A stretch of DNA of 32,000 nucleotides, from assembly GCA_048886185.1 (NCBI GenBank), contig JBHLKY010000007.1, positions 90,001 through 122,000 of the forward strand, written 5' to 3'. The translations under genes were made by a program, and so were the position numbers. A model generated the notes under the pieces. The model was given only the letters and a program-made list of their open reading frames with translations. It searched no databases and was not told where the DNA came from. Source of the stretch: Candidatus Hermodarchaeota archaeon. Lineage in GTDB: Archaea; Asgardarchaeota; Heimdallarchaeia; Hodarchaeales; Hodarchaeaceae. Shown here piece after piece: positions 6,445 through 13,959 of the stretch. Within the stretch, counting starts at the first letter, position 1. Each line of letters starts with the position of its first letter.

Positions 6445-7119
6445 TTATTCCCAATTTGGATTAAATCTCCTAATTTTACTTGTTGTCACCCCATATTTCA
6501 GAAGTCCCATGCTGATGATCAATGCACAAATGACTCCATCTAAAACTGGAACATCAAGTTCTTCCTGTAAATGTTTGTCTAAACCTGTCATCCCAGCACA
6601 ACCTAAAACAATGACTTCAGCCATATCTTTCTCGATAGCAAGCTTTGCGATTGCTAAATACTTTTCTTCTTCATTTAGATTAAGCATATCCTCCTCAGGT
6701 GCTCTTACCGAAGCTAAAACATCTTGAAGGTGATATTTTCTTACTAAACCTTCTTTGATTGGAATTGAATGTTTAGAAGTTGAAACAACCGAAAATTTAT
6801 GTCCCAGCATGGAGGCTATTTTCATTGAAGCTTCTCCAATTCCTACAACTGGCTTATTAGTGATTTCTTTCAAAACATCTAGGTGAGGATCGTCGTGACA
6901 AGCTACAATAAATGCATCATATACTGGATTTTCTCTTATTAACTGAATCATACCTTGAGCAGCTTTAAGTTCATCTTCATATGTTTCGATAAATTTAGGA
7001 GCCCCAGGTGTAGCTTTACATGACACCTCAAACTCACCATAAATGAAGTCAACTGCAGTTCTTTGTATTGATTCGGTCATAACTAGGTCGCTATTCGGAT
7101 TAATAATTAGTATTTTCAT
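6445..7119 (-). CDS. Asp/Glu/hydantoin racemase family protein (hydantoin/allantoin racemase-like)
   Basis: IINPNS N-terminus, catalytic Cys pair in IVACHDDP and VLGCAGM, and PVLDGV. Confidence 0.92.
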   Translation of the reverse strand: MKILIINPNSDLVMTESIQRTAVDFIYGEFEVSCKATPGAPKFIETYEDELKAAQGMIQLIRENPVYDAFIVACHDDPHLDVLKEITNKPVVGIGEASMKIASMLGHKFSVVSTSKHSIPIKEGLVRKYHLQDVLASVRAPEEDMLNLNEEEKYLAIAKLAIEKDMAEVIVLGCAGMTGLDKHLQEELDVPVLDGVICALIISMGLLKYGVTTSKIRRFNPNWE

Positions 7120-7152
7120 GGTAACACTTCTTTGGTTAAATTATGTCTTTTT

Positions 7153-8544
7153 TTATTTAGTAGCAGGATATTCTTTGGCCAGAGCTCTAATATATTCTAT
7201 TGTTTCCATTATATCTTCTGCTTTAATACGCTCATTAATAATTACTATACGTAAAGCAGTTTTATTACCAATCTTTGTCAATGAAATAGATCGTTTTCCT
7301 TCTACTTTTGTTCTCTCATAAACATACTGTTGAAGTTGATCCAGTTGCTTTTCAGGAAAATCCTTAGGTATAATACGAATACAAAGAATTCCTAAATCTG
7401 GTTTATGGCATAATTCGATATCTAGACTATCTAAAAGATTTTCATACACAGTTTCGACTGCTATGAGAGGAGAACGAAGTCTTTGAACCACTTTTTCTAA
7501 ACCAAGATAACGAATAGAGGTGACAAGAGGGAGGGCAGAAAAAGGTCGGGTTGTTGGAGGTGATTTTAATCCTGGGTTAGGTTCAGGATCTCCTTCACGG
7601 TTCCAATAATCTCCATACATTGCCATTCGGGTAAAATCCTTCTTTCGACGTACAAAAAGGAGAGAATTAGGTATAGGCACCCCAAATTGTTTGTGAGGAT
7701 CCCAAGTGATTGAATCCGCAAGTTCCAATCCAGAAAATAATCGTTTACGTTCTGGAACTAAAGCATAAGCCAATCCATAAGCACCATCGAGATGTAACCA
7801 GATCTTAAATTCTTTACATAATTTTGCTATCGGTAAAATTGGATCTATTGAACCTGTTGAAGTTGTTCCTGCAGTAGCAATTACACAAAAAACAATCTTT
7901 GTCTCCTGTATTTCAGCTAGAGTTTCCTGCATATACTTAAGATCGATACGAAAATCATTATCCACGGGTAAAGTCACGAGACTTTGTTCCCCAAGTCCCA
8001 TTATACGTAAAGCATGTCTTACAGAAAAATGAGCTTCTTGTGAAGTCACTACAACTAAATGAGAAGGATCTTCGAATCCTTGTAACCCTTTCTTAACAAA
8101 ATTAAAACCATGCTGCTCTGCAGTCCAATGAAGAGCCAAATAAAGGGCTGATTGATTAGAATAAGTTCCACAATACATGAACGTTGCGTCGGAATCAGGA
8201 GACAATTTAAATAACTCACATAAAGATCTACAACACAGTTCCTCCATCATGACTGCTCCAGGAGAAACCTGCCAATTTGTCACTCCTTGATTATATTGAA
8301 GCGCAATTCTTGCACCCAATTCCGCGCCTTGTTCTGGGAAGAAGTTAAATAGAGATTGAAACTCTGGACGATCATATTCTATAAGATGAGGAACCAGATA
8401 TTTTCTAATCATGTGTTGTAACGTTTCTTGGGATATCCCTTGGTTTTGGAAATCGAAAAAAGGTTTTAAATCGATGGCGATCTTCTTTGGTGAAGCACCT
8501 GAATAAATAGGTTTTTTTAAAGAGTCCTTCATCAATATCACCAA
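7153..8544 (-). CDS. PLP-dependent group II amino-acid decarboxylase
   Basis: Motifs EAHFSV, ATAGTTSTGSIDP, WLHLDGAYG and SITWDPHK (PLP-binding Lys). The true start may be ATG 8532. Confidence 0.93.
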   Translation of the reverse strand: MVILMKDSLKKPIYSGASPKKIAIDLKPFFDFQNQGISQETLQHMIRKYLVPHLIEYDRPEFQSLFNFFPEQGAELGARIALQYNQGVTNWQVSPGAVMMEELCCRSLCELFKLSPDSDATFMYCGTYSNQSALYLALHWTAEQHGFNFVKKGLQGFEDPSHLVVVTSQEAHFSVRHALRIMGLGEQSLVTLPVDNDFRIDLKYMQETLAEIQETKIVFCVIATAGTTSTGSIDPILPIAKLCKEFKIWLHLDGAYGLAYALVPERKRLFSGLELADSITWDPHKQFGVPIPNSLLFVRRKKDFTRMAMYGDYWNREGDPEPNPGLKSPPTTRPFSALPLVTSIRYLGLEKVVQRLRSPLIAVETVYENLLDSLDIELCHKPDLGILCIRIIPKDFPEKQLDQLQQYVYERTKVEGKRSISLTKIGNKTALRIVIINERIKAEDIMETIEYIRALAKEYPATK

Positions 8545-8550
8545 ATTGAT

Positions 8551-9201
8551 TTACTGTTTAACCGAAACACATATACCATCTCCAATAGGAAGTATTGTTG
8601 AAAACACTCTGGGATCTGAAAATGCCAGTTTATTGTATGCTTTCACCCCCCGTGTACTCGCCCTTTCAGGTTTTGATTCAATAACCCAGCCATACCATAA
8701 AGCATTGTCAGTGATTAGAAGGCCTCCTTTCCGTAATCTGGGAACAGCTTGTTTGAAAGCCTGGGGATATTCCTGTTTATCAACATCGTTAAAAATGATA
8801 TCAAATTCCCCCTGAAGCTGATTGATTACTTTTAGTGCGTCTCCCACTATAAATTTGATGTTTGAAATAGCCAATCTCTTAAAATAAGAGATTGCCATAT
8901 CCTTGTACTCTTCTGAGGTGTCAGTGCATATTATTTCAGCTTCATTAGAAGTAGCTTTTGCAAAATGTATAGCGGAGTACCCATAACCCGATCCTAATTC
9001 GAGAATCCTTTTGGCATCAATTATTTGTGTATAATGAGTTAAAAACCGGCCCACTAGAGGTCCAATTATCGGAAAATCGTGTTCGTATGCATAGTCTTCC
9101 ATTTCTACGAGAACAGCGTCTCGTTCTGTACCTAATAAATCTAGCAAATAATTTTGTATTCCTTTCATGAGAATTTCCATAGTTTGCACCATACGAGTCA
9201 A
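8551..9201 (-). CDS. class I SAM-dependent O-methyltransferase (Methyltransf_3/YrrM-like)
   Basis: Motifs FPIIGP, ILELGSGYGYSA, FDIIFNDVDK, GGLLITDNALW and IGDGI. The start codon is uncertain (9201, 9180 or 9168). Confidence 0.92.
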   Translation of the reverse strand: MTRMVQTMEILMKGIQNYLLDLLGTERDAVLVEMEDYAYEHDFPIIGPLVGRFLTHYTQIIDAKRILELGSGYGYSAIHFAKATSNEAEIICTDTSEEYKDMAISYFKRLAISNIKFIVGDALKVINQLQGEFDIIFNDVDKQEYPQAFKQAVPRLRKGGLLITDNALWYGWVIESKPERASTRGVKAYNKLAFSDPRVFSTILPIGDGICVSVKQ

Positions 9202-9342
9202 ATTAGTGAGAAATCATTACAAAGATGAGAATGTATACTAATCAATTGTATTTTTCTTTGTTAAAAAACAAAGAAAAAGAATAACCCTCCAAATAAAACA
9301 GAGACAGAGTACGTTAATATAGCTATAGAAGGGAGTGGTTGT

Positions 9343-10089
9343 TCAGGTACCATTTCTCCAATCTTCAACAACCTTGTTTGCCTCTTTGGCGTACTCTAAT
9401 TTTTTAGTATCTAGCTTGAGATTATCTTCTTTTTCAAAAAACTCAAAATACGAACATTGATGACATTTTGCGTAAAGTAACAGCCTAGGTATAGTTTCAG
9501 GCACTCGGACAAGACGACAATGGTTAATTGATCTAACAAAATCTTTAAAAGTTTGTGAATCTACATTAACAAACTCTAGTATATCTATATTATTAAAATT
9601 GATCATCATACTCGTTCCTGATAAATCCAAAAGATCTTCCTCTGTGATTGTAAGCTGCTCTTGATGATTGACTGAGATCTCTTCCTGTCTCTTTATTAAC
9701 TTTCTTAAACTGTTTGCAGAGAAGTCAGGAAATATTCCATCAAATTTTAAGACAAAATCTTCCATTAGGGAGGTAAGAATTTCTCCAGGATCATAATTTA
9801 ACTTTTTTGATAAGTTATAAAAATCGTTGTATAGTAATTCATCGATCTCTTTGATTAAAATGCTTAAGGATTGGTCATTTAAATCATATTTTCGTATCCA
9901 TCTGTTATGTGCTTCTTTAAGGACATCAATCTCGTTGAGAAGAATTTCGCGTTCAAAAAGAATTTTCTCTATTAATGTTTCCGTTTCCTCCTTCGTAATT
10001 GCTTTTTTCTGGACTTGATTACGATACTCCTCAATCTCTTTCGATAACTCTGACCTTAATTGAGTAGGATTAAATACTTTGATACTCAT
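9343..10089 (-). CDS. uncharacterised protein: N-terminal coiled coil + RHH-like segment + His/Cys repeat domain (paralog of 10124-10699)
   Basis: 248-aa ORF. Residues from ~75 onward align with the neighbouring protein (IKEIDELLYNDF vs IRGIDSEIYEQF; VRSINHC vs VRSISHC). Confidence 0.85.
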   Translation of the reverse strand: MSIKVFNPTQLRSELSKEIEEYRNQVQKKAITKEETETLIEKILFEREILLNEIDVLKEAHNRWIRKYDLNDQSLSILIKEIDELLYNDFYNLSKKLNYDPGEILTSLMEDFVLKFDGIFPDFSANSLRKLIKRQEEISVNHQEQLTITEEDLLDLSGTSMMINFNNIDILEFVNVDSQTFKDFVRSINHCRLVRVPETIPRLLLYAKCHQCSYFEFFEKEDNLKLDTKKLEYAKEANKVVEDWRNGT

Positions 10090-10123
10090 TAAATCACAAC
10101 CATATTTAGGTAAAGAATGTCAA

Positions 10124-10699
10124 TCAATCTTCAATTGAAGTATTCTTGAATGTCTCTACCTCATAAACATCAATACGATCGCAAAATTGCAGCTTAGAGT
10201 ACATGACAAGTTTAGGAAAGATTGATGGTATCCTAACGGTTCCACAATGACTAATACTCCTAACATGACGCGTAAAAACTTCTTGAGTTACATCAGGTAG
10301 AAAGGTGAGCTGATCAATGTGTAAAAAGTCAATCATGGCATCTGCTTCTTCAAGGTCGGCACGACCAATCTTAAGTCGGTCATAATGAATAATACGTATC
10401 CTCTTAAGTTCAAAACGATCAAAAGTAGTCCTTGCACGTAATGCTGGAAGATGATCCAACGAGTCATTTAAATCCACAAGAATATCCTTCATCATTTTAG
10501 TAATTGCATCTCCGAGATTCATTCGTAGATTCTTTATCTTATATGAAAATTGTTCATAGATTTCACTATCAATTCCTCGGATAGTGACATTTTTTAATTT
10601 GGATTTTATTTCTTCCCAGTCTTCCTTGTCAATTTCTGGTTCTTTTTGGACATTTTCGTCTTCGTTTTCATGATCTCTTCCTGATTCATATTTATTCAT
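10124..10699 (-). CDS. uncharacterised protein: acidic N-terminus + RHH-like segment + His/Cys repeat domain (paralog of 9343-10089)
   Basis: 191-aa ORF, ATG with GAGGA RBS. NVTIRGIDSEIYEQF...LGDAITKMM resembles a ribbon-helix-helix. Confidence 0.85.
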   Translation of the reverse strand: MNKYESGRDHENEDENVQKEPEIDKEDWEEIKSKLKNVTIRGIDSEIYEQFSYKIKNLRMNLGDAITKMMKDILVDLNDSLDHLPALRARTTFDRFELKRIRIIHYDRLKIGRADLEEADAMIDFLHIDQLTFLPDVTQEVFTRHVRSISHCGTVRIPSIFPKLVMYSKLQFCDRIDVYEVETFKNTSIED

Positions 10700-10754
10700 T
10701 TAATATTCCTCAAAATCTAGGTATATTGTTTGACGCGCTATATTTGTAACGCAT

Positions 10755-10783
10755 GTATGACAAGTATGACTAAGCTATAAAAA
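10755..10783 (-). promoter_or_regulatory. putative TATA box (TTTTTATA, 10783-10776) with GTCATAC direct repeat (10770-10764, 10761-10755) upstream of the paralog pair
   Basis: The sequence is read directly. A purine-rich BRE-like stretch lies upstream of the TATA. The repeat lies between the TATA box and the expected start site, a typical repressor position. Confidence 0.5.
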
Positions 10784-12234: not shown

Positions 12235-12453
12235 CTTCTTTTTCTTCAAAATGCTTAAAACAATTTCACTAATTCGTATCTAAGCCGTAACTAATATATA
12301 AAATATTGATTATTGAATTGAACCTCTAAAAAAATACAGAGAGGAGAGTCTAGAATTCAATTATTATCATTAAATCGAAATGGATTGATCCTATTAATTG
12401 TAATAAATACACTTTCAAGTTATAAACTGATTAAATTGAAGGAGTTTAAATTT

Positions 12454-13959
12454 ATGAAACATAGAAAAATTTTGATTTTGTTGGTTTTTAGTTTGTCTTT
12501 ACTGAGTTTTGGTTACAGACAAAATATGGCTTCTATTGATTTTGAATCCAGGGAAAAAATTTCTTTAAACAAGAGCTTACAATATGTTTCACAAAGTCCT
12601 ATCTATATTTCACATAATGACAACTTCTCTACATACGCAATAAGTGGAGACGGGGGAAAGAATAATCCCTGGATGATAACAGGCTATAATATTACAAGTA
12701 ATACGAACATATTAATACATATACAAGATACGACCGATTATTTTGATATTTCAGGCAATCTTTTAGACGGAATAGATAGAACTTACGATGGTATTGCCCT
12801 CTCAAACGTTGTTAATGGATCTATCTCAAATAATACCATCAGAAATAGCTATTATGGCATTTTTCTTAACAACTCTGTCTATAACATTATTTCAAACAAT
12901 TCAGTGTATTATAACCACGAAGACGGTTTATATCTACATGACTCCAGTAATAATGCCATTATTCATAATCTTATACATAATAATGGTCAGAATCCAGGTG
13001 GTAGTGGTATCTTCCTTGATCCCTCAAATCATAATCTAATTATTAATAATACCATATTTAACAATAGCAAACATGGTATATTGCTTAATCGTTCTGATTA
13101 TAATATAATATCTAGTAATAATGTATCTCATAACCATGAACATGGCATGTTTCTATATTATTCCAATTATAGTATTCTATCTTGGAATCAAGTCCATAGT
13201 AATGGTGAAAATCCTGGTGGTAGTGGTATTTTTCTTGATCCTTCAAATCACAATACTATTTTTAATAATGTCATATTTAACAACAATAAAACTGGCATTA
13301 CTCTTAATGCCTCCGAATACAATATAGTTTCAAGTAATAATGTGTCTTATAACCATGAGGATGGATTATTCCTAAAAGATTCCAGTTTCAATGCCATATC
13401 AAACAATTTAATTCACAATAATGGTGTCAATCCTGGTGGTAGTGGTATTTTTCTTGATCCATCCCATTATAACACAATTGATCACAATTCCATCTTTTCT
13501 AACGGTCTGGCTGGGGTAAACATTAGTACCAGCTCTGGAAGTAATCAGATAGTATTAAATAATTTTATTAACAATGGTCCTGGAGGCGGTGAATCTCAAG
13601 CCTATGATGATGGGCTAGACAATTCATTCCAGTTTAATTATTGGAATGATCATACTAATACTGACAACAATCAGGATGGCATAGCAGATACAGCATATAA
13701 CATAAATGGTACTGCAAACAACAAGGATGAATATCCAAAAGTCAATCAATTTGTACATCCTACTCCATCACCGTATTTCATAACCTATACAACTACTGTG
13801 ACAGTACCATTCGGTGAAACTGAAACATCAACAACAAAATCGACAGAAAGTGTATCAACAAGTTCTGAAGAACCTATCGAAGGATGGCCTTTAGCTCTAG
13901 TATTATTTTCAATAATAACACTACTTTTCCTTCGTAAATTTAAACAGAGAACTCATTGA
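12454..13959 (+). CDS. secreted right-handed parallel beta-helix (NosD/PbH1) surface protein with Thr/Ser linker and C-terminal membrane anchor
   Basis: ATG 12454 follows an AAGGAG RBS; signal peptide MKHRKILILLVFSLSLL; many N-x-I-x-x-N...GI-x-L repeats; Thr/Ser-rich linker; EGWP + hydrophobic helix + RKFKQR tail. Confidence 0.9.
   Translation: MKHRKILILLVFSLSLLSFGYRQNMASIDFESREKISLNKSLQYVSQSPIYISHNDNFSTYAISGDGGKNNPWMITGYNITSNTNILIHIQDTTDYFDISGNLLDGIDRTYDGIALSNVVNGSISNNTIRNSYYGIFLNNSVYNIISNNSVYYNHEDGLYLHDSSNNAIIHNLIHNNGQNPGGSGIFLDPSNHNLIINNTIFNNSKHGILLNRSDYNIISSNNVSHNHEHGMFLYYSNYSILSWNQVHSNGENPGGSGIFLDPSNHNTIFNNVIFNNNKTGITLNASEYNIVSSNNVSYNHEDGLFLKDSSFNAISNNLIHNNGVNPGGSGIFLDPSHYNTIDHNSIFSNGLAGVNISTSSGSNQIVLNNFINNGPGGGESQAYDDGLDNSFQFNYWNDHTNTDNNQDGIADTAYNINGTANNKDEYPKVNQFVHPTPSPYFITYTTTVTVPFGETETSTTKSTESVSTSSEEPIEGWPLALVLFSIITLLFLRKFKQRTH
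12856..13512 (+). repeat. three tandem 219-bp (73-aa) intragenic repeat units
   Basis: NPGGSGIFLDPS codons begin at 12991, 13210 and 13429 (spacing exactly 219). Units start at Gly codons 12856, 13075 and 13294. Confidence 0.92.

Follow-up and report, generated by a model that had tools for sequence, protein, structure and literature searches.

What could be the function of two adjacent genes that reach no named protein family and that look like unequal copies of each other? The question is raised by a stretch of 32,000 nucleotides (the window hereafter), namely positions 90001-122000 of contig JBHLKY010000007.1 (contig C7) of Candidatus Hermodarchaeota archaeon (assembly GCA_048886185.1), a genome of 4.84 Mb that is 96% complete and belongs to the Hodarchaeales in the class Heimdallarchaeia. 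On the minus strand of the window lies gene B (10124..10699), encoding 191 amino acids read as an acidic disordered tail, a ribbon-helix-helix (RHH) head and a beta-solenoid C-domain; 3' of it on the same strand, with 34 nt between the two open reading frames (ORFs), lies gene A (9343..10089), encoding 248 amino acids read as a coiled coil, an RHH-like head, a beta-solenoid C-domain and a conserved C-terminal helix. Transcription regulation in Asgard archaea is little known, and most of their lineage-specific genes are unnamed. We propose that A and B are paralogous subunits of a sequence-specific RHH transcription regulator, a heteromeric autorepressor of an undescribed, Heimdallarchaeia-centred family, for which a candidate operator can be pointed out. 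To the full mechanism we assign a probability of about 0.6, and our confidence is higher in the simpler statement that the family consists of RHH-type DNA-binding regulators.

An earlier sequence-only reading of the window had noticed two co-oriented neighbours with a 34-nt gap and a common ancestry, and this description holds: both ORFs are present on the minus strand, and BLASTP aligns A with B at 46 of 149 identical positions (31%, E 6e-20) over a match that spans all four of the segments which that reading had paired. By sequence the two are paralogs, each with an ortholog family of its own (21 sequences for B and 27 for A, with identity down to about 41-45%), and the source names of the homologs are Heimdallarchaeota or Hodarchaeales. 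It had further found no named family to which they could be assigned; scans of A and B against Pfam and NCBIfam likewise returned noise-level matches only.

The first line of evidence for a DNA-binding function comes from the head. In the AlphaFold2 model of B, built on the alignment of 21 B sequences, the head (10457..10603, minus strand; residues 33-81) consists of an extended strand at residues 36-42/43 and helices at 45-57 and 62-80, that is, a strand-helix-turn-helix. An exhaustive structure aligner matched residues 28-90 of this model with more than 15 RHH structures at Z 3.5-4.6 (MazE6, TacA, KacA, NikR, PutA, ParD2, RelB and FitA among them); none of the Z-scores obtained for the B model, here or below, exceeds the stated background of the tool, and they indicate a type of fold, not kinship. 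When the heads of 95 family members were scanned one by one against Pfam, the most-matched families were all RHH-type (FitA-like_RHH in 13, best E 4e-5; RHH_1 in 6; RHH_3 in 3; VapB in 2), and a profile made from the heads picks out that of the MazE6 antitoxin at E 0.007. A and B themselves have no RHH Pfam match up to E 10, a Foldseek search of the models against the PDB gave a best E of 0.028 with poor TM-scores, and a sequence search of the PDB with the core profile gave weak matches only (internalin K, E 0.023; a MarR protein, E 0.08). The RHH-like head that had been suspected from the letters of the sequence is thus upheld by the structural matches of B 36-85, by the families of the RHH clan Met_repress in the per-member scan, and by the antiparallel inter-chain ribbon predicted for the complex described next.

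For that complex we modelled A 72-223 together with B 33-184, along with three controls. The interface score ipSAE was 0.71 for A-B and 0.00 for the best control, and by calibration 58 of 80 solved complexes and 2 of 110 mismatched pairs attain a value of 0.71. Between runs at least 72% of the contacts were in common, with a predicted local distance difference test (pLDDT) of at least 74 for the partner. The predicted interface involves the heads only, residues 73-128 of A (9706..9873, minus strand) with residues 33-81 of B, and the strand contacts A76:B40, A78:B39 and A79:B37 keep a constant index sum, so that the strands run antiparallel as in the RHH ribbon. The two heads are therefore predicted to join by an antiparallel beta-ribbon between the chains, the very check that had been suggested for an RHH assignment. 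The idea of a two-subunit heteromeric regulator gains, at the level of prediction, from this score set against that of the controls, from the strict B-then-A tandem and from relatives that carry two modules in a single chain.

The two partners would not contribute equally to such a dimer. A strand of the form K-x-V-T-I-R-G/N is shared by the B-like group, by other single forms and by the N- and C-modules of the fused proteins alike, and B carries it as K-N-V-T-I-R-G, in which N37, T39 and R41 would be the DNA-reading residues. The whole A-like clade (48 representatives) is without the T-I-R residues and retains the hydrophobic positions alone, A having S-I-L-I-K-E where B has N-V-T-I-R-G; the net charge of the head is +1 in B and -6 in A (residues 72-120). 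Because of this loss and this charge, A would be a DNA-blind, or at least DNA-poor, partner that carries the coiled coil. The same facts can be turned into another circuit, in which a B-B homodimer is the operator-binding repressor and A an anti-repressor that titrates B into non-binding heterodimers, giving a self-limiting feedback: the residues lost by the A-like clade are kept by every other subgroup, the acidity of the A head is strong, and the predicted interface is an ordinary RHH dimer interface at which B could equally well pair with itself. However, the hydrophobic core of A and its I-D-E..Y-N-D-F helix are strongly conserved, the presumed strict 1:1 co-transcription from one promoter fits an obligate partner better, and the single-chain relatives show two unlike modules cooperating. 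We regard the B-homodimer circuit as the main rival, though an unlikely one.

The second line of evidence is the 152-nt region 5' of B. Reading towards the gene, all on the minus strand, there is a TATA-box-like TTTTTATAG (10775..10783), recognised as a putative promoter element from archaeal promoter architecture, then four bases, then a direct repeat GTCATAC-TT-GTCATAC with a 9-bp period (10755..10770), then about 55 nt that include a Shine-Dalgarno-like GAGG (10708..10711; 8 nt 5' of the start codon and putative in this role), and finally the ATG of B. When four loci with B proteins as little as 58% identical are aligned, the 19-column block GTCATACyTGTCATACATG has 18 invariant columns, against 20-27% in the flanks. 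The tandem repeat has a single match in the whole 4.84 Mb genome; among 22 genomes of the genus all eight perfect matches lie upstream of B, where three one-mismatch copies are also found, and one-mismatch matches elsewhere amount to about one per two genomes, no more than for a reversed control pattern. An invariant reading strand combined with a locus-specific repeat at the gene's own core promoter would be the signature of an autoregulator.

Because of the position, uniqueness and conservation of the repeats, we infer autoregulation at this site. The A-B complex would bind the two 9-bp-spaced GTCATAC repeats, which follow the TATA box of the B-A promoter after 4 nt, and the N-terminal coiled coil of A could link two A-B dimers; once bound, the complex would block recruitment of transcription factor B (TFB) and RNA polymerase, giving negative autoregulation. 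Archaeal transcription initiates about 25 nt downstream of the TATA box. With the start placed by this general rule, the region of the start site would be covered by the repeats, and repression by occlusion suggests itself. Elsewhere in the genome we found near-cognate tandems, in which one copy is degenerate, inside ORFs on contigs C10 and C21; no convincing second site was found, and no regulon is claimed. The sole intergenic near-cognate site, ATCATACTAATCATAA at C13:45837, lies next to ORFs that match no Pfam family, about 230 nt upstream of one of 212 amino acids. The repeat operator and the loss of the DNA-reading residues in A, together with a distant link to the RHH_8 family taken up below, had escaped the sequence-only reading. 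The pair itself appears to be bicistronic, because T-rich runs follow the stop codon of A (9263..9300, minus strand; 45-80 nt past it, a probable oligo-T terminator) and because the genes further downstream are linked with it only in some close relatives.

Several points weigh against the heteromeric autorepressor. Both proteins are acidic overall (net -9 for B, -12 for A), and of the two heads that of A has -6 and that of B just +1. In the alignment, helix 2 begins with G-D-A where RHH_8 proteins have the phosphate-anchoring G-x-S/T-R-S/T-E, a helix-2 start that is usual in most other RHH proteins. A and B stay below every Pfam threshold, and the genome offers a single strong candidate site. 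Moreover, the pass of the complex model may merely mirror the likeness to RHH dimers, which have been solved in abundance, and the model cannot tell an A-B heterodimer from B-B and A-A homodimers; for this reason the invariant B-A tandem and the two-module single chains, to which we now turn, count for as much in the argument for a heteromer.

A search of 1.84 billion representative proteins with a profile built on the 149-residue core common to A and B gave 263 proteins at E <=1e-3 and 204 at E <=1e-10, which sets the family at no fewer than 263 clusters at 50% identity. Among the proteins examined, 151 are single modules and about 27 are two-module chains of about 295 amino acids, besides a few with one head and two solenoids and short forms of about 128 amino acids; some relatives have proline-rich and acidic tails. 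In the sampled genomes the family is mainly one of Heimdallarchaeia: 37 of 83 genomes of that class have matches, and among 301 sampled genomes of the phylum matches occur in this class and in one other family (12 of 76 genomes, short forms), with no match in the other families. Within the window's genus, 16 of 21 genomes carry the genes. A survey of whether the two genes always occur together, which the sequence-only reading had called for, finds B followed directly by A in 15 of these 16 genomes, while in the 16th the contig breaks off within the locus. In the window and the four other loci that we read, 31-38 nt separate B from A; the neighbouring genes differ, and other lineages have the two-module single chain.

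A maximum-likelihood tree of 175 modules, rooted at the midpoint and supported by the Shimodaira-Hasegawa-like approximate likelihood ratio test (SH-aLRT), contains an A-like clade of 48 modules (99%) and a B-like group of 28 (76%), which are sisters (63%), while the N-modules and C-modules of the fused proteins form two clades (99% and 98%) that are likewise sisters (83%). Because of these two sister relations the tree favours two independent duplications, one leading to the B-A gene pair and one to the two-module chain, though support in the deeper part of the tree is modest. The same topology argues against the pair being a split fused gene, which we had considered.

Besides the pair, several relatives are worth recording. 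In the window's own genome a third, distant paralog on contig C5 (80720-81733, minus strand; 337 amino acids as the longest frame) has an N-terminus rich in acidic residues and proline, together with a single RHH-like head (which RHH_1 matches weakly, at E 0.15) and a pair of solenoids. In a Heimdall-group genome (GCA_026702845.1, L048:4547-6058) three family genes stand in tandem, encoding 150, 148 and 204 amino acids, the third being A-like with an N-terminal helical extension as in A; upstream of them are the 9-bp tandem words TCATACATG, TTATACATG and TAATACAG, with a second pair after a TATA box. The protein P0127, of 821 amino acids on a 9.2-kb Logan contig, is a canonical leucine-rich repeat (LRR) protein (LRR_8, LRR_4 and LRR_14 matches) whose C-terminal end closely resembles the B solenoid (E 2e-25 to the core profile, positions 63-148), and it may be a product of domain shuffling or else a chimera of assembly or gene calling. 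The relative P0060 has a DUF3194 match at 22.2 bits that is seen in no other member.

The repeat layout extends beyond the pair. Repeats of TCATAC at 9-bp spacing stand upstream of the fused relatives, and exact matches to TCATACNNNTCATAC number 8 in five genomes from three further families, 7 of them just upstream of the fused family gene, compared with one match for the reversed control pattern. Other paralogs have different words in a like layout: in one group GTTTAACAA occurs twice beside the TATA box, the C5 paralog has three TAACAT words at 10-bp spacing after TATATA, and some loci have three copies or an inverted pair. In six loci of at least three families the fused gene is divergent from a pair of full-length genes for exporters of the ATP-binding cassette (ABC) type, and where we read the shared intergenic region (loci L045, L047 and G006/G007) repeat clusters lie near both promoters. 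The fused branch thus looks like a local exporter regulator, judging by gene order and repeats, and the family as a whole looks like a set of local repressors. No exporter-like target was visible for the A-B pair at the loci examined.

If the fused branch controls an exporter, the solenoid becomes the natural candidate for an effector-binding domain. In B it occupies residues 98-181 (10157..10408, minus strand) and is modelled as three and a half strand-strand-helix coils, residues 99-180 having pLDDT above 90, with a ladder formed by H105, H127, H151 and F172 and an invariant C152. The repeat unit I-x-[H/F/C]-x-x-x-[L/V]-x-[I/F/V], which had been read from the sequence, is found in B at I103-I111, F125-F133, I149-I157 and L170-V178, and these units fall on the strand-turn-strand of the modelled coils, in accord with the small LRR- or solenoid-like C-domain then imagined. 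The model of A is weaker than that of B and shows the same core, with its paralogous solenoid at residues 136-220 (9430..9684, minus strand), two long N-terminal helices (8-27 and 34-67) and a C-terminal helix; in each subunit a linker of about 20 residues separates head and solenoid. The helices at residues 8-67 (9889..10068, minus strand) are read as a coiled-coil extension, and residues 1-31/32 of B are disordered with a net charge of -8, so the two N-termini do differ in the way first described. The C-terminal helix of A (9355..9405, minus strand; residues 229-245) is nearly invariant, above all at E232, Y233, E236, A237, N238, V241, E242 and W244. The solenoid is likely to be an effector or oligomerisation domain, by ligand binding or by contacts between dimers.

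It had been thought that the His residues and the His-Cys pair of this domain might bind a metal or another ligand, and one could accordingly imagine a metal or redox sensor in the manner of NikR with the C-domain as the sensing site. H105, H127, H151 and C173 are indeed nearly invariant and C152 invariant in the B family, the RHH domain of NikR is among the structural matches of the head, and a gene of the iron-dependent-repressor type lies about 4 kb away. But across all subgroups one Cys alone is conserved; the His positions are variable in the A family (N, R, G, F, Y, Q), and the fused forms lack them; and in B H105, H127 and H151, like F172, are in register with the core hydrophobic positions, which in the model suggests a structural ladder and not a metal site. 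The C-domain is a predicted solenoid, and NikR matched residues 28-78 only. No metal site is supported, and we hold a sensor of this kind to be improbable.

Still less credible, to our mind, is a non-transcriptional role, in which A and B would be a toxin-antitoxin-like pair or a scaffold, as the same reading had mentioned, the scaffold being cytoplasmic with the solenoid as its LRR- or CARP/TBCC-like protein-binding module. RHH heads are typical of antitoxins, the C-domain weakly matches LRR proteins, bactofilin and the CAP/TBCC beta-helix, and the family includes both the proline-rich or acidic tails and the 821-residue LRR protein with a B-like end. Against this, the partners are paralogs of one fold and architecture, no toxin family is linked with them in any locus examined, the genus keeps the pair stably in its chromosomes, the solenoid matches all stay at or below Z 5 or a TM-score of 0.37 by query, and a locus-specific repeat beside the TATA box would be difficult to account for if the proteins did not bind DNA.

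The neighbourhood of the pair consists of metabolic genes that vary between genomes. In the window, genes for an O-methyltransferase, a decarboxylase dependent on pyridoxal phosphate and an Asp/Glu racemase follow directly downstream of A (6445-9201, minus strand); a complete genome of a close relative (L022) has the trio behind the pair as well, and another relative has the decarboxylase alone there. On the other side, at 12385-13959 (plus strand), the window encodes a NosD/right-handed beta-helix protein with internal repeats, and large NosD-type genes of a similar kind neighbour both the B homolog of Heimdallarchaeota LC_3 and the pair in L022, which may be coincidence. In two related genomes (L006:1484-2713 and L023:885-2114) a small GTPase of the Arf/Roc family, of 409 amino acids, is encoded about 3 kb upstream of B-A, next to MacB-type ABC transporter genes.

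In a broader view, though we would advance it only tentatively and at somewhat less than even odds, A and B may stand for a class of archaeal transcription factors not described before, in which an RHH pseudo-dimer is obligately asymmetric. Such a dimer would have arisen by two duplications, one giving the B-A gene pair with its DNA-blind subunit and the other the two-module single chain; it would read 9-bp direct repeats overlapping the core promoter and carry a new mini-solenoid as effector domain. If this is true, the archaea closest to eukaryotes would have in it a regulator typical of their lineage, with TCATAC as its cognate word and an ABC exporter as the likely target of its fused branch. 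At least 263 clusters of hypothetical proteins would acquire not only a fold but also a likely partner, a specific DNA word and a testable circuit, in which the promoter is repressed at the TATA box by its own product and, in the fused branch, an exporter is controlled. Since the protein and the candidate operator can be synthesized, this could be tested in vitro without culturing the organism.

How does the pair compare with systems already known? The nearest named family is PF17723 (RHH_8), a group of RHH regulators from bacteria and archaea that are uncharacterised. Its members have a like architecture: the RHH is N-terminal, and a linker leads to a small beta/alpha C-domain, which in other proteins is joined to winged-helix heads, as expected of an effector module. 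With hhalign, the family aligned to eight Asgard RHH_8 sequences over 55 columns of the C-domain (probability 77%, E 2e-5), and to a single RHH_8 protein without significance (E 0.11); two further independent routes point the same way, a search by predicted shape having superposed 74 residues of the solenoid on the RHH_8 C-domain at 2.4-2.6 A and language-model features having given 0.86 with 185 shared features. However, A and B have no RHH_8 match up to E 10 (the gathering cut-off is 25.4 bits), the RHH_8 C-domain covers only part of their solenoid, and RHH_8 heads have the usual S/T-R-T-E helix cap that the A/B family is without. Because A and B do not reach the RHH_8 model, the solenoid is by sequence at best distantly related to the C-terminal part of RHH_8, and we do not file the pair as members. 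RHH_8 is sparse in Asgard genomes (9 of 121 sampled), and a genuine member of 95 bits and 160 amino acids occurs in the window's genome (C10, 160207-160548). No experimental work on RHH_8/PF17723 was found in the literature, nor any description of the A/B family in the literature on RHH regulators of Heimdall or Asgard archaea; the family is undescribed so far, while the RHH fold itself is known.

With LRR proteins and small beta-solenoids (bactofilin, pentapeptide repeats, the CAP/TBCC beta-helix) the C-domain shares stacked coils of 22-24 residues with a ladder residue at the turn, but its coil is beta-beta-alpha with an H/N/C ladder and no match exceeds background Z. The aligner placed B 97-183 on small solenoids at Z 3.4-5.0 (the SV2C luminal domain, bactofilin, Qnr, LRR proteins and the CAP C-domain); CAP C-domains (Z 3.5-3.8) and TBCC clusters (TM-scores 0.37 and 0.32 by query) do no better than unrelated solenoids, and A and B match no LRR Pfam family, internalin K (E 0.023) and the LRR structures (Z 3.4-4.5) being weak. 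NikR also combines an RHH head with a C-terminal regulatory domain, and the heads are structurally similar, but its C-terminal domain is an ACT-like metal-binding fold whereas that of A and B is a predicted solenoid, and just the NikR head was matched to the B model (residues 28-78).

Among archaeal RHH transcription factors, CdrL has a double zinc ribbon and CdrS is a single domain of 55 amino acids, and CdrL binds one reproducible genomic site (PMC7439475), which is a precedent for one strong candidate site in the window's genome. aCcr1 is listed as a cell-cycle transcription factor of the RHH family (PMC9976878). None of the three belongs to the A/B family, and no solenoid is described for CdrL or CdrS.

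The closest parallels in the way DNA may be read, and in the joining of two heads, come from plasmids and bacterial repressors. The Omega repressor of plasmid pSM19035 and MetJ are RHH dimers that bind tandem 7- or 8-bp repeats, and the likeness lies in short non-palindromic words, head-to-tail or inverted, next to a promoter, each presumably taken by one RHH dimer in a cooperative array; here, in contrast, the period is 9 bp with two or three copies, direct in most loci and inverted as a pair in one (L042), and where Omega and MetJ are small homodimers without a folded C-domain, A and B would bring two unlike modules, each with a solenoid. TraY of the F plasmid, a relaxosome accessory protein with two RHH repeats in one chain, is a natural single-chain RHH pseudo-dimer as the fused relatives of about 295 amino acids would be, but it has no solenoids and no sequence relation to them, and the window has the two-gene form. 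To our knowledge natural heteromeric or single-chain RHH proteins are rare, and for this reason the A/B family offers a useful case in which to ask how a symmetric DNA-binding fold turns asymmetric.

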